Origin: Bacteroidales bacterium
GTDB taxonomy: Bacteria; Bacteroidota; Bacteroidia; Bacteroidales; UBA12077
Assembly: GCA_028282585.1 (NCBI GenBank)
Contig: JANQHR010000097.1
Span: 1-64,000 of the forward strand
Reading direction: 5' to 3'
Length of the DNA stretch: 64,000 bases
Shown here: piece by piece, positions 1,256-10,771 of the stretch
Layout: each line of letters begins with the position of its first letter
Position numbering within the stretch: position 1 is the first letter of the stretch
Notes under the pieces: model-generated
What the model was told of the DNA's origin: nothing
The model's database searches: none
The model's input: only the letters and a program-made list of their open reading frames with translations
Program-made: the position numbers and the translations under genes

Positions 1256-1792
1256 CTAATAAGTTCTTACCTCAAAACCTCCAAATACAACATCACACTG
1301 AATAGAAAGGTGATTTGTATCTTTATTAAATACTTCATTTTCATAACGGCCCGTCCCAAAAGCAGCAGTCTCTCCATTCGGCAGTTTTGCCGAAGCAAAA
1401 GCTGCATCAGCTTTAATCTTTATTGGAGTGGACTCATCAACTTTAAGCAAACAGCCGCCAAAAACAGTATTAATGTTTATTTCTTTTGAACTTTCCGAAA
1501 GATCAATGCCACGTAAATCTATGGTTGAACTAGCAAAAATTACATTGTATTCTTTGAATTTCTCTTCCTGCCCATTAATTCGACTTTCACTAAAAATCGT
1601 TGTATTTTCATCTCCACGTTTATCCCAAAAATGGAAATTTCCAACTAATAATTTTATTCCAACAAAAATAAGAAAGAATGCAATAATAAATTTAACTACG
1701 GGGATATTAACGTTGAAAACAACTCGTATAACAATTCCTAATCCCACAAGAATTAGAAGTAAACCCCAAAATAAACCAGCTCCCATTTTCAT
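1256..1792 (-). CDS. LiaF-like cell-envelope stress membrane protein (DUF2154-like)
   Basis: Two N-terminal TM helices (FWGLLLILVGLG), then beta-rich repeats (NVIFASSTIDL, NTVFGG, DVVFGGFEV). Confidence 0.7.
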   Translation of the reverse strand: MKMGAGLFWGLLLILVGLGIVIRVVFNVNIPVVKFIIAFFLIFVGIKLLVGNFHFWDKRGDENTTIFSESRINGQEEKFKEYNVIFASSTIDLRGIDLSESSKEININTVFGGCLLKVDESTPIKIKADAAFASAKLPNGETAAFGTGRYENEVFNKDTNHLSIQCDVVFGGFEVRTY

Positions 1793-1864: not shown

Positions 1865-3679
1865 TTAATCTTTTTTGTAAATATCAAGGTATTTCCTTAA
1901 AGCCTCTACATAAAAAATTAATGGATATAACTTTTCATCGTACCAAAGGGTTGCAAAATAAAGTCCGATCGGGTTGGCCACAATCCCATTCTTTTCTATT
2001 TCTCCATTAACCCAATTAAGTGCCTTTAATAAAACACTTTCATTTTTTCTAGATGTAAGTGCAGAAATTGCAAGAGAAGTTTCTTCAATAGTCCCTGAAA
2101 CTCCTTTTTCTCCACCCCAACTACCATCTTCATTTTGTTGGGTGGATATAAATTTCCGAGCTTTTGTTAGCAAACCATTAATAATTTTTTTGTCCTTTTC
2201 ATCTAATGAAGACATGGTCAAGGCTTCATTTAAATAAGATACAACTTTAGCTGTACCATAAACTTTATTCGTTTTTAACCTGGCATTTTGATTTCCAAAC
2301 CACAATGGAACCCACGCCCCATCATTGCCTTGAGTTTTTCGTAGATATTTAAGAATCTTATTTACACTTTTTTGAATAATTTTTTTCTTTTTAATTGAAA
2401 CCTTACCTGTTAAGGCATCTAAAGAATATATCCAAGCCAGGAAAGCGTGGCCTGAAATATCAGGGCAAGAACTATCAAAAGGCAATCTGCCCCAACCTCT
2501 GCTAAATGTTGGTATGCCGCCATCATTATTCTGTAGTTTGCAAAGCCATAAACAACCATCGAGAACAGGATTTACTTCTTCTTTTGTTCCTTGTGTTAGG
2601 TTTAACAATGCGATAATTGCACCTGAAGTATCATCTGCATCTGGAACAGAACCTGAATAATTGGTCCACCCCCATCCTCCGGGCCTCGCTTTATTAAACG
2701 GATGAATACCTGAATACTGCAAAGAAAGGAGATGCTTTTGTAATATATCTATTTCATCAATATTCAACCGGCTATTCAAATTATTTCTTCCGATTGCTTT
2801 TATGCTTAAAGTTGTTACCCATGTTGAAAGATCTGTATCTATTGGCCAACTTCCATTAGCCCTTTGCTGATTTTCTAAAAACATAATTCCCTTTTCAATA
2901 ACAACCGGGCTATTAGCTTTACTGAAATTCAAACACAGGTTAACAAATGCAGTTAAAGGAATAGCTTCGAGATAGCCACCGCTTTCGGGAAGCATCTCTT
3001 CTAACCTGCTTAAGGCTTTTTTAATTGATCTTTTCCTTATAAAATATAAAATTCTGTTGCCTTTACCTTTGTTTTTAAATAAAGCTATTCCTACGGCTAC
3101 TAGAGCTGGAATAGCATAGCTAACTACCTGTAAATTAAAAAACTTATAGAATGAAACTGGTAGGACTGTAAATTCAAAAGGCAACTGCGGTATTTTATTG
3201 AATGCTTCATTGTCGATAACCCCACAAATAGCTAACATGGTTAAGATCGGAATTGAAAAGGTTAAATCTTTTCCGTAAAAATCCAAAATAGTTTGTATTA
3301 CCGATGATGAGGTTAGTTGAATATTTTGATTTAATAAATATCTTTCGACTTTTCTCAAATTACTGAAAATGCTTGGATCTTCTTGCTTGAAACAATATAA
3401 AGCAGCGTAACAAAGTAAAGAAGTACTTACATTGCTTTCACTTGCAACAGTATCGCCATAACCACCGTCTTCATTTATATTTTCTTTCAGCCAGACTAAG
3501 CCTTTTTCTATGTGTGAATTATGACGCGCATTTTCATTTAGCCATAATGCCACAATCGCAACAGCTGTAGAAAGTGCGCTTGACGATAATTCTCCAACCC
3601 AAAACCCCTTTTTATTTCTTTCCAATAATAATTGTTCAGAAAATACTTCAAATTTTTTTGCTATTTCCTTATTTTCCAT
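1865..3679 (-). CDS. Squalene-hopene cyclase-like class II terpene cyclase
   Basis: N-terminal GFWVGELSSSALST; QW-type repeats QQRANGSW, LQNNDGG, TQGNDGAW, QQNEDGSW; catalytic PGGWGW...PDADDT (DxDD). ATG at 3679 directly follows the upstream stop. Confidence 0.85.
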   Translation of the reverse strand: MENKEIAKKFEVFSEQLLLERNKKGFWVGELSSSALSTAVAIVALWLNENARHNSHIEKGLVWLKENINEDGGYGDTVASESNVSTSLLCYAALYCFKQEDPSIFSNLRKVERYLLNQNIQLTSSSVIQTILDFYGKDLTFSIPILTMLAICGVIDNEAFNKIPQLPFEFTVLPVSFYKFFNLQVVSYAIPALVAVGIALFKNKGKGNRILYFIRKRSIKKALSRLEEMLPESGGYLEAIPLTAFVNLCLNFSKANSPVVIEKGIMFLENQQRANGSWPIDTDLSTWVTTLSIKAIGRNNLNSRLNIDEIDILQKHLLSLQYSGIHPFNKARPGGWGWTNYSGSVPDADDTSGAIIALLNLTQGTKEEVNPVLDGCLWLCKLQNNDGGIPTFSRGWGRLPFDSSCPDISGHAFLAWIYSLDALTGKVSIKKKKIIQKSVNKILKYLRKTQGNDGAWVPLWFGNQNARLKTNKVYGTAKVVSYLNEALTMSSLDEKDKKIINGLLTKARKFISTQQNEDGSWGGEKGVSGTIEETSLAISALTSRKNESVLLKALNWVNGEIEKNGIVANPIGLYFATLWYDEKLYPLIFYVEALRKYLDIYKKD

Positions 3680-3680
3680 T

Positions 3681-4574
3681 TTATTTGTTTTCATATGCCA
3701 GGCTTGCAAGTGCTAATAGCCCATAAAATGTATATTCAATATCTGTGCCTGGGTCAAGTTCAGTTGCACAAAAACCTCCGTGGTCATATAATAATGTAAT
3801 AAATTCTAACGATTTTGGTTTGATAAGTCTTAAATCTGCACCACAAATTCGAAGAGTATATAATGCCACTGCCGTAGATAAAAGGTCCTCAAAGGGTGCA
3901 TTCCGAAAAGCTGCAAAGCCTCCCGAAGCCCTGTAATATTTCATTAGTTGTTTTGCGTAACTTTCAATATTCTTCCCTGAAATTTTTTTTAAAATTACGT
4001 TTACTGCTAATAAGGTAATTGAAGTGTTTTCTTGCTCTGATAATAAATCAACCTTTAATTTCTTCAAAAACCTGTTTAACGAATAATATTCTCCGAGGTA
4101 ATATAATGCCAAAAACCCCAGAAACCAATTATAATCTGTTTTATTACCTGGGCTATTACTTATTATTTCTAAAACTTCATCCCCTAATTTTTTATTATAA
4201 GGATCTTTTTTAAATAATTTCGAATATAATATTGCCTTACAAAATACATGAACGTTGTTGTCATTTGTAAAGTTCTCTGCATTATTCAAATATTCTCTTA
4301 AACCATCTTTTATCTTAGGAAGTATTAAGGCTTCAGAAACAAAACACCCGAATACAGAATAGTATAAATCCGGCTTGCCTGCTTTATCTATAAATCCTCC
4401 ATTCTTGGAATGTTGCGCTAAAACATAACTTTTAATTTCATTAATTATATCTTCGTTAAGCAATGTAAAGGCATTTTGTAAAAAATTTTCAAAAGCATAT
4501 TTCTTGCCAAAATTCGAAAGAGAATTTAAAAAAGGATTAAATATAATCGTTAAAAATTTTTCCCATAATTTCAT
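3681..4574 (-). CDS. Prenyltransferase/squalene oxidase repeat protein (single alpha/alpha barrel)
   Basis: Repeats QHSKNGGF..PDLYYSVFG, SGGFAAF..EDLLSTAVAL, HGGF..DIEYTFYGL; no DxDD. Exact start uncertain. Confidence 0.75.
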   Translation of the reverse strand: MKLWEKFLTIIFNPFLNSLSNFGKKYAFENFLQNAFTLLNEDIINEIKSYVLAQHSKNGGFIDKAGKPDLYYSVFGCFVSEALILPKIKDGLREYLNNAENFTNDNNVHVFCKAILYSKLFKKDPYNKKLGDEVLEIISNSPGNKTDYNWFLGFLALYYLGEYYSLNRFLKKLKVDLLSEQENTSITLLAVNVILKKISGKNIESYAKQLMKYYRASGGFAAFRNAPFEDLLSTAVALYTLRICGADLRLIKPKSLEFITLLYDHGGFCATELDPGTDIEYTFYGLLALASLAYENK

Positions 4575-6120
4575 GTAAGGCCAGTTTTAGTGCCAATTTA
4601 TCAACATTACTTATACTCTGATAAGCATTTTGAATATGTCGCCTGAGTAAAGTATGTGTTTTTTCGACAATATTATTACCATGAATTAGTTCAAATATTT
4701 TTTGCCAATTCTTATTATGAATGAGCTCCAACGCTTCCATTCGATCTTTTTTATTCAAATCATCAAATAAAACTGATAAAAGCACAGAGAAATTCCTAAA
4801 TAATATATCGCCATTTTCACCCTTATAATCACCCAGGTCATCTTTTATCTGGTAGGCAATTCCAACGTATTTACTAAATTCTTTTAATTGCTTTAATAGT
4901 TTTTCATCAGCATTGCCTGCTGTGGCTCCAATTAATAACGAAACATTAAATGCAGCTGAAGTTTTATTTTCGAATATTTTTAAGATTTCATCAACTGTAT
5001 AAATCTTAACTTCATTGTCATTGTATAATTCTTCTCCCTGTCCAAGTGTTAAATCAATATGCCCCTGAGATGCTATTTTAATGCAATTTACCAAAACATT
5101 TTTTGGTAAAGGACTTTCAGCAAGCAAACGGTACCCATGCCCAATAAGAAAATCGCCAACATTCAATGCAACAGGAACTCCATATTTTTTGTGGATTGTT
5201 TCAAACCCGTTTCGAAAGATATCATTATCCTCAATATCATCATGTATCAATGATGCCTTATGAAAACATTCAATCGATAATGCAATATGTTCAGTTATTT
5301 CAGGGTCTGGTTCATTACTTAAAGATTCGTATGCCAATGCCGATAAAAATGGCCGCCAACGATGGCCATCTGTCACTAATGCTTCACGAGCTATCTCATC
5401 TGTGATTGTGGTCCCTGGAATTGCTTTCATAACAACTCCATCCTGTTTAAAATAATTGCTAACCTTTTCTCTTAACTGGCTTTGGTTAATCAATTTAATA
5501 CCTTCGCTTTTATGATAAGCTTTAATCTCTTCTTTTAACCATTTGACATCAGTTTCCGTATCTTTGCATCCATCTCCCAACAATGGGATTCCAATCCCGG
5601 GAACCGCATATTTGGTTACCAATTCAAACATCTTTTGTAGTGAATCCATACACCCTACCCCGATAACAGCATCAATTTTTCCGCCTTCAATTAATTTGGC
5701 CGCAATAGTTGTACCTTCCATTACTAAAGTTGTATAACCTAGTTCTTCTGCTTGGTTTATTATTTCAGAAATAGGGCAAGCCTCACAATCAACACATATT
5801 AATCCCAGTTCATCCTTTTTAGCTTTGCAGTTTAGGCTGTTTTTTAAACACTCAGGAAGAAGCAATATTCTTCGGCTATAATGTGTACTTTGTACAACTT
5901 TTCTCCAAACCTCATTCCCACAACAAACCATTACAAATGCCAAATAATTCTCATTCCATTTATAGGTTTTTATTAGGTTCTGCGCATGTTCCAAAAGGGA
6001 ATCATGAGATATTGGAGGGAGGATATCGTGTTCGGAAAAATATAATGCAACATTCCGCCTTAATTCATCTCTTTCCTTTTGCACAGAAGGAACAACAAGT
6101 TGTAAAATATTTGACTCCAT
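4537..6120 (-). CDS. DUF116-like Cys-rich domain fused to trans-polyprenyl diphosphate synthase
   Basis: N-terminal half RRILLLPECL..C..CVDCEAC..VGC..GCKDT. C-terminal half GHRWRP, FARM HDDIED followed by FRNG, GQ, KT, SARM QIKDDLGD. Confidence 0.85.
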   Translation of the reverse strand: MESNILQLVVPSVQKERDELRRNVALYFSEHDILPPISHDSLLEHAQNLIKTYKWNENYLAFVMVCCGNEVWRKVVQSTHYSRRILLLPECLKNSLNCKAKKDELGLICVDCEACPISEIINQAEELGYTTLVMEGTTIAAKLIEGGKIDAVIGVGCMDSLQKMFELVTKYAVPGIGIPLLGDGCKDTETDVKWLKEEIKAYHKSEGIKLINQSQLREKVSNYFKQDGVVMKAIPGTTITDEIAREALVTDGHRWRPFLSALAYESLSNEPDPEITEHIALSIECFHKASLIHDDIEDNDIFRNGFETIHKKYGVPVALNVGDFLIGHGYRLLAESPLPKNVLVNCIKIASQGHIDLTLGQGEELYNDNEVKIYTVDEILKIFENKTSAAFNVSLLIGATAGNADEKLLKQLKEFSKYVGIAYQIKDDLGDYKGENGDILFRNFSVLLSVLFDDLNKKDRMEALELIHNKNWQKIFELIHGNNIVEKTHTLLRRHIQNAYQSISNVDKLALKLALHEIMGKIFNDYI

Positions 6121-6130
6121 AATTTAATCA

Positions 6131-7309
6131 TTAGCCATACGACCCCAGCCCAAAAAAAGCTTTGTTTTTTACAAACCGGTATATTCTGTTTTTTTCAGGT
6201 ATTCTTTCACATGAACCATGGCTACATATACTCGGGGAATTCTTTAACTGTTCCAGAAAATCTTCCCTGTTTGATGTATTTATAGCCTTATGCCTCGCCA
6301 TAAAGTTGTATAACCATTCAGGGTCCTCCATAATGATGCACCCTTTTGTTTTTCGATTTATTTCTTTCCTAAAAGAATCCAAGAATGTCGATTTTTCATA
6401 TATTTCTTCAATGGAAGACGATTTTATATTGTCAACCGCAAACTGTAAAACCGGACATGGTTCAATATATCCTGATGGATTAATATGGTAACTTAAACCT
6501 TCTGCAGCAGGGCAAAATGGCTCTCCTTTTCCATTCCAATAAGAATCTACCAAAATAATATCATATTTCGTTCGCCCTTCAACCATAAACCTTCTTAAAC
6601 GATTTATTTCTTCCTGACTTAAAGCTAAATCATATTGTTGGTTTTCACCGGATGGGCGGTAAATATAGTACCATAGGTATATAACTCCTTTATCTACCAA
6701 CATGTTTACAAACTCATCAGACAATGCCATATCAATATTGGACTTACAAACACTAACTGCAACACCTGTAATAAGCTTGTTTTTTACACAAGTTTCAATT
6801 GACTTTATGGTCTTCTTATAAATATCAGAGCCTCCACGACGTATATCAGCTACATTCTCATCACCTTCAAAACTAATTAATGGTGTCACATTTGCGCTTT
6901 TTCTTAATTCACCAGCAACTGAATCAGTTAAAAGTGTACCATTTGTAAATAATTGGAAATAGCTTTTTTGATGTTTTTTAAAAACCTCTAAAAGAGGCTT
7001 ATACATAAGAGGTTCCCCTCCTAATATACCAAAAAAGTATGAACCCTTCCGGTTTCCTGCTTCTATAATTTTATCAACATACTTGATATCAAGACACTCT
7101 GCTCTCTTCCCTTTTGTTACCCAACACCCCTGACACTTCAAATTGCAATCATTTGTTACAGAAATAAAATGAAATGCAGGAAATAATTGCCCATTTTTCT
7201 TTCTTTTTTGGTACTTGGAAAAACCAACCATTCCCTTTATCCCAAAATTATAAATGAACTTACGCCTACACTTTTTATCAGCTTTTAAAAATTGTTTTAA
7301 TACTGCCAT
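6131..7309 (-). CDS. Radical SAM protein with SPASM/twitch-like C-terminus
   Basis: CNLKCQGC (CxxxCxxC), GGEP, FTNG; C-terminal CPAA..HINPSGYIEPCP..GC. Confidence 0.9.
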   Translation of the reverse strand: MAVLKQFLKADKKCRRKFIYNFGIKGMVGFSKYQKRKKNGQLFPAFHFISVTNDCNLKCQGCWVTKGKRAECLDIKYVDKIIEAGNRKGSYFFGILGGEPLMYKPLLEVFKKHQKSYFQLFTNGTLLTDSVAGELRKSANVTPLISFEGDENVADIRRGGSDIYKKTIKSIETCVKNKLITGVAVSVCKSNIDMALSDEFVNMLVDKGVIYLWYYIYRPSGENQQYDLALSQEEINRLRRFMVEGRTKYDIILVDSYWNGKGEPFCPAAEGLSYHINPSGYIEPCPVLQFAVDNIKSSSIEEIYEKSTFLDSFRKEINRKTKGCIIMEDPEWLYNFMARHKAINTSNREDFLEQLKNSPSICSHGSCERIPEKNRIYRFVKNKAFFGLGSYG

Positions 7310-7324
7310 CTCTATAATTCCGGT

Positions 7325-8104
7325 TTATTTCTTTTTTTGTTCTTTTAAAGCTTTTTCTCTTTCTTCAATTGCCTTATCTATTGCTTCCGTTTTTATAATT
7401 CGTTGCCTTTTAGCTTTTCTTCCTTCCAAAGCTTTATAAATATCGTTGCCAAGTATTTGCTCAACATCTTTGCGTTGTCTTTGAAGTTCTAATGCTTCAT
7501 CTATTGATTCATTTCCACTTATTGCGCCTTCCTGCGTATATTTTGGAAAAATAATTGCAGCATCCGGGCATATTCTAGCACACGCCGGGCAATTATTTTT
7601 ACATGATTGAGGGTTAACCACTTTAACTTGCCCATCTTCCTTCTCGTACGTTCCAAATAAACAAAAATCTGAACATTGCCCACATGCTGTGCAACGTTCA
7701 TAATCTAATACCGGATACCATGATGGCCAATCTTTATCTGCTTCAATTTTTTCAAATTGCCTTTCCTTACCTTTAAATTCCGTAAAAGAATTCAAACTTC
7801 CCAAAACAGTATCTATTGAGTTATTTCGAATGTTTAGATAGAAAATATTTTTATCTTCAATATCAAGGCCGGCAAACTTTAAAAGCGAATTAACACCTCT
7901 CGAATAACAGGCAATTAGTAAGGTTTCCTTATCTTTTGTAATAAGTTCTTGTACAATTTCCTTATTCAAGGCACATAAGCCGCATAAATCTGATAATTCA
8001 TAAACCGGCACATTGGATTTCTTCAGGATTTGCGTTACTTGACTCGCAAGTTCCTTGTTAATTATATCTCCCTTGCATGAACAGTATATTATTTGCTTTT
8101 GCAT
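7325..8104 (-). CDS. Ferredoxin-family protein: HdrA-N-like Cys domain plus 2x[4Fe-4S]
   Basis: N-terminal YCSC..DLCGLC..LIAC; C-terminal CTACGQCSDFC and CKNNCPACARICP. Confidence 0.8.
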   Translation of the reverse strand: MQKQIIYCSCKGDIINKELASQVTQILKKSNVPVYELSDLCGLCALNKEIVQELITKDKETLLIACYSRGVNSLLKFAGLDIEDKNIFYLNIRNNSIDTVLGSLNSFTEFKGKERQFEKIEADKDWPSWYPVLDYERCTACGQCSDFCLFGTYEKEDGQVKVVNPQSCKNNCPACARICPDAAIIFPKYTQEGAISGNESIDEALELQRQRKDVEQILGNDIYKALEGRKAKRQRIIKTEAIDKAIEEREKALKEQKKK

Positions 8105-8250: not shown

Positions 8251-8281
8251 AAAAAACCCTGTCTAGAGTTTAGACAAGGTT
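8251..8281 (-). terminator. Intrinsic terminator after lon
   Basis: Minus-strand hairpin AACCTTGTCTA-aactc-TAGACAGGGTT followed by a T tract. Confidence 0.7.
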
Positions 8282-8308
8282 CAAAATATATGGTTTAAAT
8301 ATTTATTT

Positions 8309-10771
8309 TTAAGATATTTTCAATGGTTTCTTAACTTTTTCTTTCAGCAATGCGATATTTAAAACCTCCATAATTTCTTTTACATAATGAAAGTTCAATC
8401 CTTTTAAATATATATCCTTGATTTTACTAATATCTTTTCGGTTTTCTTCAGATAATATTATATCCGTAATGTTAGCACGTTTAGCTGCTAAAATTTTCTC
8501 TTTAATTCCTCCAACAGGCAATACCTTTCCTCTTAAGGTTATCTCACCTGTCATGGCAATCTTTTGGCGAACTTTTCTTTGTGTAAACATTGATGCTAAA
8601 GATGTTGCCATTGTAACACCAGCAGAAGGTCCATCCTTTGGAATTGCCCCTTCCGGAACATGAATGTGAATATTCCAATTATCAAATGCTTCTTCTCTTA
8701 TATTCAGTTCAGCTGCGTGAGATTTTATATATTCTAGCGCTATAACAGCCGATTCCTTCATTACATCACCTAAATTACCAGTTAAGGTAAGTTTTCCTTT
8801 CCCTTTGCTTAAACTACTTTCCACGAATAAGATTTCGCCTCCTACAGCTGTCCAAGCTAAACCAGTAACAACGCCTGCAAATTCATTACCCTGGTATTTG
8901 TCTTTAGTAAATTCAGGCGGACCTAATATTACCTTAATGTCTTCAACAGTTAAAGACTTGTTAAATTCTTCTTCGAGCGCAATTTTTCGAGCAAGATTTC
9001 TTGTAATTTTTGCTAAAGTTTTATCTAATGTTCGAACTCCTGACTCACGAGTGTGATTCTCGACAATATATTCCAACACCTTTTTACCAAAAGACACTTT
9101 TGATTTCTCAACCCCATGAGAATCTAACTGTTTTGGAATTAAATGTCTTTTCGCAATTTCTATTTTCTCTTCAACAATATAACCACTAACATCGATCATT
9201 TCCATACGATCTCGTAAAGCAGGATTAATTGTAGATAAAGTATTGGCAGTTGCAATAAACATTACATTTGATAAATCGTATTCCAGCTCCAGGTAATTAT
9301 CATGAAACGCATTGTTTTGTTCCGGGTCCAAAACTTCCAAAAGGGCTGATGCAGGGTCTCCATGAAAATTTTTCCCCACCTTATCAATTTCATCTAATAT
9401 AAAAACAGGATTGGATGATTTTGCCTTTTTAATATTTTGGATAATCCTTCCCGGCATTGCTCCTATGTATGTTTTTCTATGCCCCCGGATTTCTGCTTCA
9501 TCATGCAAACCACCTAATGACATTCTTACATATTTTCTGTCAAGTGCTTTAGCAATTGATTTTCCTAATGATGTTTTACCCACGCCTGGAGGGCCATAAA
9601 GGCATAATATTGGAGATTTCAAATCACCTTTAAGTTTTAATACAGCCAGATATTCTAAAATTCTGTCTTTAACTTTTTCCAAACCAAAATGGTCTTCATC
9701 CAATATTTTTTGTGCCCGTTTTAAATCAAAATTATCTTCAGTAAATTCATTCCAAGGTAAGTCGAGTAATGTTTGAAGATAATTTAACTGAACTGAATAT
9801 TCTCCTGTTGCAGGATTCAGTCTATTTAATTTATCAACCTCTTTAGAAAAAGTTTCTGCAACTTCCTTGCTCCATTTTTTATCTTCTGCTCTTTTCTTTA
9901 AGTCTTCAATTTCCTGATCTAAAGGATTACCACCCAACTCGTCCTGAATAGTTTTCATTTGTTGGTGTAAAAGATATTCTCTTTGTTGACGATCAAGATC
10001 ATTTTTTACTTTCGACTGTATATCATTTTTTAACTCAAGCATTTGGATTTGACGAGTCAGATGTTCAAGCAATCGAATAGATCTTTCTTTTAGATTATCA
10101 AGTTCTAAAAGCTTTTGCTTGTCTTCTATGTCAATATCACTATTTGAACAAATGAAATTCACCAAAAATTTCGTGTTTTCAATATTTTTTACGGCAAAAG
10201 ATGCTTCCGGAGGAATGTTGCTTGATAGTTTTATAATTCTTAAGGATAAATCCTTTAGAGAGCCAACAATTGCTTCGAACTCTCTGGTTTTATCATTTGG
10301 TTTTTTATCCTTAAGTAAAGTCACAGTTGCTTTATGATAAGGCTCTGCCTGTACCATCTGATTCATTTCGAATCGTTGACGGCCTTGAATAATTACAGAT
10401 GTACTACCATCTGGCATTTCAAGCACTTTTAAGATTTGAGCTACCGTACCTAATCTGAACATATCCTCCTCCTCCGGTTCATTTACTCTTCCATCTTTCT
10501 GTGCAACAGTACCGATAATTTTATCTTTTTTATAGATATCATTTACCAAGCGAATCGACTTTTCTCTTCCAACTGTTATTGGTAAAATCACTCCTGGAAA
10601 TAAAACAGTATTTCTTAACGGTAAAATTGGCAGTTCCTTTGGCAATTCAGATCTTTTAAAATCAACATCATCTTCATCATCCGAAATTAAAGGGATAAAT
10701 TCCCCATCGCTTTCCATATCACCCGCAAATAGTATACTTCTATATTTACTTTCGTTTATTTTATCACTCAT
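8309..10771 (-). CDS. lon: ATP-dependent Lon protease
   Basis: [15 protein letters not shown]-domain, Walker [18 protein letters not shown] catalytic Ser. Confidence 0.98.

Follow-up and report, generated by a model that had tools for sequence, protein, structure and literature searches.

Hopanoids and sterols are cyclic terpenoids that order membranes and leave molecular fossils. In the canonical hopanoid pathway a class II cyclase of β-γ architecture, squalene-hopene cyclase (SHC), carries a DxDD motif, receives its substrate from HpnCDE or squalene synthase (Sqs) and is joined by the radical S-adenosylmethionine (SAM) enzyme HpnH. The sporulenol (C35 sesquarterpene) pathway of Bacillus, made up of HepS/HepT, YtpB and SqhC, instead feeds its class II cyclase a regular head-to-tail chain that comes from a dedicated polyprenyl diphosphate synthase. 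Here we analyse a stretch of 64,000 nucleotides from a Bacteroidales bacterium (contig JANQHR010000097.1, positions 1 to 64,000; referred to below as the window), in which five co-oriented genes encode a ferredoxin-like protein, a radical SAM enzyme, a fusion of DUF116 to a polyprenyl synthase, a small α/α-toroid protein and an SHC-like cyclase. Our preferred reading, to which we give a probability of roughly 55%, is that this operon is a self-contained pathway, independent of both squalene and oxygen, to a polycyclic isoprenoid lipid with Fe-S tailoring. The five genes, in their order of transcription, and the catalytic codons of the cyclase are the following.

7325-8104, minus strand: gene for the ferredoxin-like protein, 259 amino acids (aa), from the listing of open reading frames (ORFs) and Pfam Fer4_10
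6131-7309, minus strand: gene for the radical SAM enzyme, 392 aa, Pfam Radical_SAM and SPASM
4537-6120, minus strand: gene for the DUF116-polyprenyl synthase fusion, 527 aa, Pfam DUF116 and polyprenyl_synt
3681-4574, minus strand: gene for the α/α-toroid protein, 297 aa, Pfam Prenyltrans (PF00432)
1865-3709, minus strand: gene for the SHC-like class II (β-γ) terpenoid cyclase, 614 aa from a TTG start, domains SQHop_cyclase_N and SQHop_cyclase_C
2630-2641, minus strand: catalytic DxDD codons of the cyclase (D357-A-D359-D360), placed by alignment with a solved SHC

Cyclases of this general kind are already in print. Santana-Molina et al. (2020, PMC7306690) defined a group of "SHC-like" proteins whose members in Planctomycetes keep the catalytic residues and whose genomic context suggests precursors other than squalene, and they noted that some SHC-bearing anaerobes have no known squalene synthase and that further precursor pathways may await discovery. 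A more recent study (Mol Biol Evol 2025, PMC12414744) has the SHC-like clade spanning the Planctomycetes-Verrucomicrobia-Chlamydiae (PVC) and Fibrobacteres-Chlorobi-Bacteroidetes (FCB) groups, Spirochaetota and Acidobacteriota, calls its function and structure unknown, and reports excess substitutions on the SHC-type dimer surface along the stem of this clade of unknown function; the enzymes expressed, according to its main-text passages, are from the oxidosqualene cyclase (OSC) and SHC clades only. The same study places the SHC-like clade sister to cyclases of head-to-tail epoxy-polyprenyl substrates, among them Lon15 and AtoE, which act on prenyl chains joined head-to-tail throughout (C25, C40). 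The cyclase of the window shares with the published clade its phylum range (PVC, FCB, Acidobacteriota), its conserved catalytic residues, its length of 550-700 aa and a genomic context pointing away from squalene, and judged by phylum range, length and catalytic residues it is most likely a Bacteroidales member of that clade. Another likeness is found in Bipolaricaulota strain J31, where a gene cluster (bioRxiv 10.1101/2025.11.21.689855, Fig. S12) holds DUF116, a squalene-hopene cyclase, a hypothetical protein, an "adenosyl-hopene transferase" (radical SAM) and a polyprenyl synthetase. By the description in the figure legend this cluster looks like an unfused version of the five-gene cassette in another phylum; it differs in that DUF116 and the synthase are separate genes and that IspH and YjbQ are included, and its authors link it to an alkaloid-like terpenoid.

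In order to place the cyclase of the window relative to true SHCs, we compared it with profile models, with a solved structure and with its relatives in a tree. Against the SHC equivalog model of NCBIfam, TIGR01507, it scores 69.4 bits where the cut-off is 431.1 bits, and its match to the solved Alicyclobacillus SHC reaches 31 bits (E 8.3e-7). The DxDD motif nonetheless aligns residue for residue, with D357, D359 and D360 of the cyclase's DADD (residues 357-360) opposite D374, D376 and D377 of the Alicyclobacillus enzyme. All three aspartates are invariant in 17 sequences drawn from eight phylum-level groups and in 30 sequences from Bacteroidota, and the cyclase has both this proton-donor motif and the β-γ double-toroid architecture. 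A quick IQ-TREE search over 41 rows united 28 cassette cyclases in one clade (Shimodaira-Hasegawa-like approximate likelihood ratio, SH-aLRT, 99; stem length 2.41), apart from an SHC side of 13 rows that comprised nine near-alike sequences from metagenome-assembled genomes (MAGs) of Acidobacteriota type, a single sequence each from an Actinomycetes MAG and a Poribacteria MAG, the latter on a long branch, and two canonical SHCs. Judged by score, the cassette cyclase also lies outside the SHC/SqhC part of the family to which Bacillus SqhC belongs. A Tepidisphaeraceae genome and a Limisphaerales genome (G004 and G005) each carry a canonical SHC (648 and 682 bits with TIGR01507) together with a cassette cyclase (59-61 bits), so that the two types are paralogues, presumably with different jobs. 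The score, the placement in the tree and this paralogy with true SHCs led us to reject canonical SHC identity, in agreement with the first-pass annotation of the window, which had treated the cyclase as SHC-like and expected it to fall outside the canonical enzymes.

The supply of squalene can be addressed at the level of the whole genome, an assembly of 4.89 Mb in 173 contigs that is 98.35% complete. The absence of a squalene synthase that had been remarked on for the window extends to the genome: the family SQS_PSY (PF00494), which takes in Sqs and HpnC/HpnD, gave 0 matches in either, in a search whose control was positive in 8 of 14 reference genomes. There was likewise no match in the genome to YtpB/DUF2600, which the control found in B. 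subtilis, or to the squalene-epoxidase family. We accordingly dropped a sporulenol-type route through YtpB/DUF2600 and an epoxide-initiated route, the required genes being absent from the genome search. Set beside the canonical hopanoid pathway, the locus shares the β-γ class II cyclase with DxDD and a radical SAM gene adjoining the cyclase, as HpnH adjoins it in the Terriglobia loci L076 and L078; it differs in SHC and HpnH scores below the cut-offs and in having a dedicated prenyl synthase in the place of a squalene synthase gene. Its resemblance to the Bacillus sporulenol pathway lies in a class II cyclase with its own polyprenyl diphosphate synthase, whereas YtpB/DUF2600 is missing, the synthase is fused to an Fe-S domain, and a ferredoxin, a radical SAM enzyme and a toroid protein are added. 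Lon15 and AtoE, as described in PMC12414744, take epoxidised substrates whose formation requires O2; the cassette combines an intact, alkene-protonating DxDD with Fe-S and radical SAM partners that are sensitive to O2, in a genome with no squalene-epoxidase-family gene.

The first-pass annotation had also made joint conservation of the five genes a test of its reading and pointed to similar gene sets in Planctomycetota and Verrucomicrobiota; the locus scans bore out the first and showed the second to be real. With the cyclase as query and one genome per species, 88 relatives were confirmed from 598 pattern hits, and the best 80 of the 88 were kept. Bacteroidota record titles accompany 67 of these 80 loci, whose cyclases are 48-94% identical, and in 50 of the 67 the sequence upstream of the cyclase extends for 4.7 kb or more. 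In 46 of those 50 loci with enough flank, the ferredoxin, radical SAM, fusion and toroid genes are all present in the order seen in the window. L003, L011, L056 and L066 depart from it, and in two of these four the other genes are found on the same contig at a distance of 40-57 kb. Among the shorter loci of this set, 16 of 17 contain whatever genes fit. In L003 the cyclase gene is separated from its four partners, a gene for a PD-(D/E)XK family transposase follows (L003:9968-10870), and further on come a TdeIII restriction enzyme and a cytosine methylase; these mobile and restriction neighbours hint at rearrangement.

A second set of loci was gathered with an alignment of the fusion protein as query, which confirmed at least 599 stretches, of which 80 were kept; a whole fusion ORF is lacking in one of the 78 new loci. 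Loci were grouped by record title and neighbours were counted with hidden Markov models (HMMs) built from the Bacteroidota orthologues. This set reaches Planctomycetota, Verrucomicrobiota, Lentisphaeria, Kiritimatiellae, Acidobacteriota, Armatimonadota, Anaerolineales and Desulfobacterales. Within Bacteroidota the fusion is followed by both toroid and cyclase in 30/33 loci and by the toroid only in 3/33 (neither, 0/33), and it is preceded by the ferredoxin and the short radical SAM enzyme in 31/32 and by the radical SAM enzyme only in 1/32 (ferredoxin only, 0/32; none, 0/32). Outside Bacteroidota the corresponding downstream counts are toroid and cyclase in 16/29, toroid only in 7/29 and neither in 6/29, and upstream of the fusion we found ferredoxin and short radical SAM enzyme in 13/31, ferredoxin only in 12/31, radical SAM enzyme only in 1/31 and none in 5/31. 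A Pfam scan of 106 neighbouring ORFs from 12 non-Bacteroidota loci showed that in five loci scored as having the ferredoxin only (L121, L131, L133, L148 and L160) a longer radical SAM protein takes the place of the short enzyme. The gene order of the window recurs in seven other phylum-level groups, for example in Planctomycetota, Verrucomicrobiota, Acidobacteriota, Armatimonadota, Chloroflexota and Desulfobacterales, and because the same order returns in dozens of independent genomes the arrangement is far beyond what chance would produce.

A second architecture is found in Planctomycetia. There, 68 of 80 loci have the fusion immediately after the cyclase, and the genes for toroid, ferredoxin and radical SAM enzyme usually lie away from this pair; all five Planctomycetia genomes searched nonetheless encode, at other places, a ferredoxin of the cassette type (123-135 bits) and an ORF resembling the toroid (45-59 bits). 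At the level of the order, an even sample of 301 Bacteroidales genomes contains the cyclase in 15, spread over 13 of 208 genera, and neither of two relatives from the source organism's own genus has it. A high-scoring fused DUF116 accompanies the cyclase in 15 of these 15 genomes, and one further genome (82% complete) has the fusion with no cyclase detected. Taken as a pattern of gene content, this marks the cyclase-fusion pair as the core of the system, regularly accompanied by the ferredoxin, the toroid and a radical SAM enzyme.

Conservation of this kind bears on the simplest alternative, namely that the organism is an ordinary hopanoid producer in which a divergent SHC cyclises imported squalene, or squalene made by an enzyme that goes unrecognised, and in which the neighbouring genes are unrelated housekeeping genes. 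The annotation of some homologues as squalene-hopene cyclase by NCBI and JGI, the retention of DxDD and of the β-γ architecture, and a Pirellula MAG that has HpnCDE and lacks a canonical SHC would all sit well with it. We nevertheless regard it as very improbable, given the score far below the SHC cut-off, the separate clade and the coexistence with true SHCs on the one hand, and the strict gene order and the 15/15 co-occurrence with a fused synthase on the other. A benchmarked survey (bioRxiv 10.1101/2025.07.29.667474) also reports true SHC to be absent or extremely rare in Bacteroidota.

Several loci in other phyla carry additional genes beside the cassette. GcvH-like and CobW/HypB-type GTPase genes precede it in L146 (3583-6900), L163 (3500-5165), L153 (3482-5052), L155 (2961-4652) and L142 (4053-5694), loci that belong to Acidobacteriota, Armatimonadota, Verrucomicrobiota and Tepidisphaeraceae, and two of them have a NifS-like cysteine desulfurase as well, a neighbourhood that suggests dedicated metal or sulfur handling. 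A gene for an NADPH-dependent FMN reductase comes after the cyclase in a Desulfobacterales locus (L160:12313-12945) and an Acidobacteriota locus (L163:12586-13137). In a Planctomycetota locus, two ORFs of 649 and 202 aa with no Pfam match are inserted between the toroid and cyclase genes (L121:10585-13298).

The most constant partner of the cyclase is the fusion protein, an arrangement that Makarova et al. (2015, PMC5898192) had noted in Pirellula staleyi. Its DUF116 domain (PF01976; 115.9 bits, cut-off 25 bits) covers residues 48-198, or window positions 5527-5979, and its polyprenyl_synt domain (PF00348; 140.7 bits, cut-off 27 bits) takes up the rest of the protein from about residue 241 onward. 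In the synthase half the first aspartate-rich motif (FARM), FHKASLxHDDIxD with the consensus ECFHKASLIHDDIED, is invariant in 18 sequences, and the second (SARM), DDLxD/E, is conserved; in the window's protein these read DDIED (residue 294) and DDLGD (residue 427). The synthase falls short of every NCBIfam equivalog cut-off. The solved structures that match it are geranylgeranyl diphosphate (GGPP), farnesyl diphosphate (FPP), hexaprenyl and heptaprenyl synthases, the best being 1wy0 (E 2.5e-44), and all of the listed PDB matches align from profile position 196 onward and leave the DUF116 domain uncovered. The genome holds two further polyprenyl synthases, three in all. Chain length in these enzymes is governed by the residues preceding the FARM, where one of the other two synthases has Phe at -5, the second has Ala/Thr at -5/-4, and the cassette enzyme has Ala/Ser at -5/-4 together with Phe at -8. 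These patterns weakly suggest one short-chain synthase, one long-chain synthase and a third, dedicated and probably medium-to-long-chain synthase, and the fusion protein would then be the dedicated supplier of the cyclase's substrate.

The DUF116 half contains seven invariant cysteines (C91, C98, C109, C112, C115, C157 and C185), which include a CxxCxxC motif. AlphaFold2 (AF2) models it as three N-terminal helices followed by a small α/β domain (predicted local distance difference test, pLDDT, 85.8). Foldseek returned nothing for this model at E <= 1e-3, its best match having E 8.4e-3; VIA-align returned generic Rossmann-like or flavodoxin-like folds alone, with a best Z of 7.5; and ESM Atlas searches with DUF116 and with the ferredoxin found their own families alone. 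Makarova et al. (PMC5898192) described DUF116 (arCOG02078, COG1852) as a cysteine-rich family with CxxCxxC, a predicted flavodoxin-like fold and a predicted part in electron transfer, and our model agrees with their account on a small α/β domain; the archaeal proteins of that account stand alone, have two N-terminal membrane helices and are encoded beside sulfite or nitrite reductase genes. The obligatory fusion of DUF116 to the synthase suggests that a redox step may take place on the prenyl diphosphate itself. A second DUF116 subfamily, lower-scoring (60-87 bits) and unfused, is encoded by ORFs of roughly 270-455 aa in cyclase-negative genomes of Bacteroidales (G008, G075, G079, G083, G088, G104 and others).

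The two genes at the head of the cassette encode further Fe-S proteins. In the ferredoxin-like protein the 2x[4Fe-4S] core occupies roughly residues 129-187 and the charged tail at the C-terminus is conserved; the N-terminal domain varies from lineage to lineage and shows no conservation across phyla. Eight cysteines (C138, C141, C144, C148, C168, C172, C175 and C179) are invariant in 21 sequences from several phyla, and the best PDB matches are the ferredoxin domains of pyruvate:ferredoxin oxidoreductase (PFOR) delta and HdrA; it is likely to be the electron donor for the radical SAM enzyme, for DUF116 or for both. In the radical SAM enzyme, Pfam recognises Radical_SAM at 57.3 bits and SPASM at 23.5 bits. 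All 57 sequences compared keep its CX3CX2C cysteines (C55, C59 and C62) together with C188, C266 and C285, and 56 of them keep C324, so that the four additional cysteines would suffice for one auxiliary cluster of the SPASM/twitch-like type. The best PDB match is SkfB (E 6.6e-10) and no NCBIfam equivalog was reached; identity with HpnH (TIGR03470) was rejected at 41.2 bits against a cut-off of 225.05 bits. Across loci the radical SAM slot holds two unrelated types, the SPASM-like enzyme of about 390-440 aa and a B12-binding type of 506-643 aa, the latter lying between the ferredoxin and the fusion in loci of Planctomycetota, Anaerolineales and Desulfobacterales (L121:6315-7853, L131:3500-5161, L133:6410-7930, L148:5892-7823 and L160:6388-7959). 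Four of these five longer proteins, all but that of L148, were scanned against NCBIfam and resemble radical SAM proteins of the B12-binding type (TIGR04013), at 67-75 bits, which is below the cut-off. The occupation of one slot by two unrelated radical SAM types speaks for a tailoring more than a scaffold-forming role, and the enzyme probably tailors the terpenoid.

The same proteins could be read in another way, in which the fused synthase makes FPP or GGPP and the Fe-S proteins replace the NADPH-dependent Sqs or HpnCDE by a reductive head-to-head or radical coupling, giving squalene or another tail-to-tail C30-C40 chain and from it a hopanoid-like triterpenoid. Short-chain GGPP and FPP synthases are among the best PDB matches of the synthase, three conserved redox proteins stand beside a cyclase whose relatives use squalene, the genome has no SQS_PSY, and there is the precedent of SHC-bearing anaerobes that lack known squalene synthases (PMC7306690). 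The Ala/Ser pattern of the synthase at -5/-4, however, is that of the genome's long-chain enzyme, and a radical SAM slot that accepts two unrelated types and is often unlinked in Planctomycetia would be odd for an essential coupling reaction. Moreover, the cassette is kept in genomes that have HpnCDE and a canonical SHC, and the clade is the reported sister of cyclases of head-to-tail polyprenyl substrates (PMC12414744). Weighing these, we consider a coupling route to squalene quite unlikely.

The remaining member of the set is the small toroid protein. PF00432 matches it at 35.1 bits, three of its GGF repeats, which resemble those of prenyltransferase β subunits, are clear, and it has no match in NCBIfam. 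Its AF2 model is a single α/α toroid (pLDDT 88.5) with weak fold matches (best E 6.4e-4, template modelling score 0.60) to monodomain "SHC" proteins of myxobacteria, drimenyl diphosphate synthase, MstE and the Rab geranylgeranyltransferase (RabGGTase) β subunit. It is only the repeat region that matches RabGGTase β. D230, D274, D278, E280 and many aromatic residues are invariant among 30 sequences, and judged by eye a single invariant aspartate (D230, in DLLST) stands where SHC has DxDD. The β subunits of zinc protein prenyltransferases have a zinc site of Asp, Cys and His. Among the same 30 sequences no Cys or His of the toroid is invariant or nearly so, and a zinc prenyltransferase reading was dropped for that reason. 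Prediction of a complex between cyclase and toroid gave a score of 0.00 and was uninformative either way. The toroid may be a prenyl-binding or accessory subunit, or it may be a second catalyst.

If the toroid were instead to attach the prenyl chain to a non-isoprenoid head group built or modified by the radical SAM enzyme, and the conjugate were then cyclised, the product would be a meroterpenoid or a cofactor-type compound, comparable to merosterolic acid made by MstE or longestin made by Lon15. The prenyltransferase-β repeats of the toroid, its weak fold resemblance to monodomain meroterpenoid cyclases and to RabGGTase β, and the variable neighbours in other phyla (GcvH-like, CobW-like GTPase, NifS-like, FMN reductase) are compatible with this, as is the presence of the meroterpenoid cyclase Lon15 in the sister clade (PMC12414744). 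We think it unlikely all the same: the Bacteroidota cassette has no prenyltransferase of the UbiA type or ABBA family and no gene for head-group biosynthesis, the toroid lacks the invariant Cys and His of a zinc site, and the recurrence of the same five-gene core in very distant phyla fits a housekeeping membrane lipid better than a specialised metabolite.

On the reading that we prefer, a pathway from a head-to-tail chain with neither squalene nor oxygen involved, the synthase half would extend an allylic diphosphate with isopentenyl diphosphate (IPP) to a regular, all head-to-tail chain, probably longer than C20, and the SHC-like cyclase would protonate the terminal double bond of that chain by means of its DxDD acid and so form fused rings. 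The 2x[4Fe-4S] ferredoxin would supply electrons and the radical SAM enzyme would tailor the terpenoid, while the DUF116 domain may perform or gate a redox step on the prenyl diphosphate, possibly a reductive removal of the diphosphate, and the toroid may bind the prenyl chain or assist one of the two core enzymes. We infer the substrate, its chain length, the order of the steps and the parts played by DUF116, toroid, radical SAM enzyme and ferredoxin from the make-up of the cassette; the same holds for the radical or Fe-S chemistry that the first-pass annotation had coupling or modifying the chain, and for the lipid that would result.

A more specific form of this scheme starts from the orphan biomarkers of sediments and oils, namely tricyclic terpanes (cheilanthanes) and tetracyclic polyprenoids, whose hypothetical precursors are tricyclo- and tetracyclo-polyprenols such as tricyclohexaprenol. 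The cassette might be an anaerobic route to these polyprenols, in which a head-to-tail chain of C30 or more loses or has reduced its diphosphate through DUF116 and the ferredoxin, the cyclase closes the first three or four rings and the radical SAM enzyme tailors the product later. We offer this as speculation that is rather improbable; if it were true, sediment Bacteroidales, Planctomycetota, Verrucomicrobiota, Acidobacteriota and Desulfobacterales would be source organisms of the orphan biomarkers.

A number of observations weigh against the pathway we propose. For every member of the set, what goes beyond domain identity is something we infer from sequence. The search for folds related to DUF116 gave no specific match, and a redox role for it is suggested by its conserved cysteines and by the prediction in PMC5898192. 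Chain length was read from general rules of structure and function, and the best PDB and NCBIfam matches of the synthase span FPP, GGPP and heptaprenyl synthases and do not discriminate among them. The toroid has no acid motif of the DxDD type. Planctomycetia mostly keep the genes for toroid, ferredoxin and radical SAM enzyme apart from the core, and there these may not all serve the same pathway. Finally, some members may use squalene: PF00494 is present in 8 of the 14 other cyclase-positive Bacteroidales genomes and absent from 6, and the Pirellula MAG mentioned above encodes HpnC followed by an HpnD-HpnE fusion of 791 aa, beside a divergently oriented IspH (L168:1806-5182), with no canonical SHC found in its genome. 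On the side of a squalene-free route stand the 6 genomes without PF00494 and two carriers outside those 14, Draconibacterium orientale and Tangfeifania diversioriginum, whose PF00494 gene sits among carotenoid genes: one of the two has Idi, CruF and a lycopene cyclase domain as neighbours, the other a CrtI family member and a CruG-like gene.

The layout of the locus agrees with the first-pass annotation, whose description of five co-oriented genes after a terminator behind lon, with the domains named above and with DADD, proved correct in every particular by ORFs, Pfam and the hairpin. Two features lie upstream of the set.

8254-8282, minus strand: intrinsic-terminator-like hairpin after lon, with a 12-pair stem, a 5-nt loop and a T-run
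8309-10771: lon, the upstream neighbour of the five-gene set, matched by TIGR00763 at 932 bits

The hairpin (8282-8254) marks the upstream boundary of the operon. From the ferredoxin gene to the cyclase gene the spacings are, in order, a gap of 15 nt, a gap of 10 nt, an overlap of 38 nt and an overlap of 29 nt. The ORF listing began the cyclase at TTG; a start at the ATG at 3694 gives a form of 609 aa, the length of the identical database protein P0001, and shortens the overlap of toroid and cyclase genes to 14 nt. Downstream, a gene for a LiaF-like membrane protein (1256-1792, minus strand) begins 72 nt past the cyclase with no terminator-like site between them; we considered it as a sixth member and dropped it, since it is adjacent only in locus L001 (94% identical). 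A DUF4846 gene (372.7 bits) lies beyond it at 347-1252 on the plus strand. Sequencing runs that match comprise 14 DNA runs labelled coral or marine metagenome, and no RNA runs are listed.

The first-pass annotation called the pathway undescribed, a statement that stands in part. The cyclase clade is in print as SHC-like (PMC7306690 and PMC12414744) and the fusion was noted in 2015 (PMC5898192), so the clade is an already recognised open problem and not one that had gone unnoticed. No paper characterising the cassette or its product was found among the Creative Commons-licensed papers in PMC and in bioRxiv, a coverage that stops short of subscription journals and supplements, and the supplement of PMC7306690 (Fig. 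S10 and text) may contain part of the gene context already. The main-text passages on the SHC-like clade treat the cyclase alone; what is new here is the five-part gene set, which comes in two architectures and with alternative types of radical SAM enzyme, the co-occurrence at genome level and a Bacteroidales member with no squalene route.

The SHC-like clade has been named a missing piece for reconstructing how substrate use evolved in this family (PMC7306690, PMC12414744), and it now gains a defined set of partners, with at least some carriers in which the pathway cannot start from squalene. Cultured organisms carry the system, namely Draconibacterium orientale DSM 25947, Tangfeifania diversioriginum DSM 27063, Maribellus sediminis, Bremerella sp. 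JC770 and Anatilimnocola sp. NA78, and with these and a known minimal gene set in hand the question is directly testable. If the pathway is as we propose, a polycyclic lipid made without O2 would bear on the membrane biology of anaerobes and on the orphan terpane biomarkers, and the cassette would provide the first functional context for DUF116.

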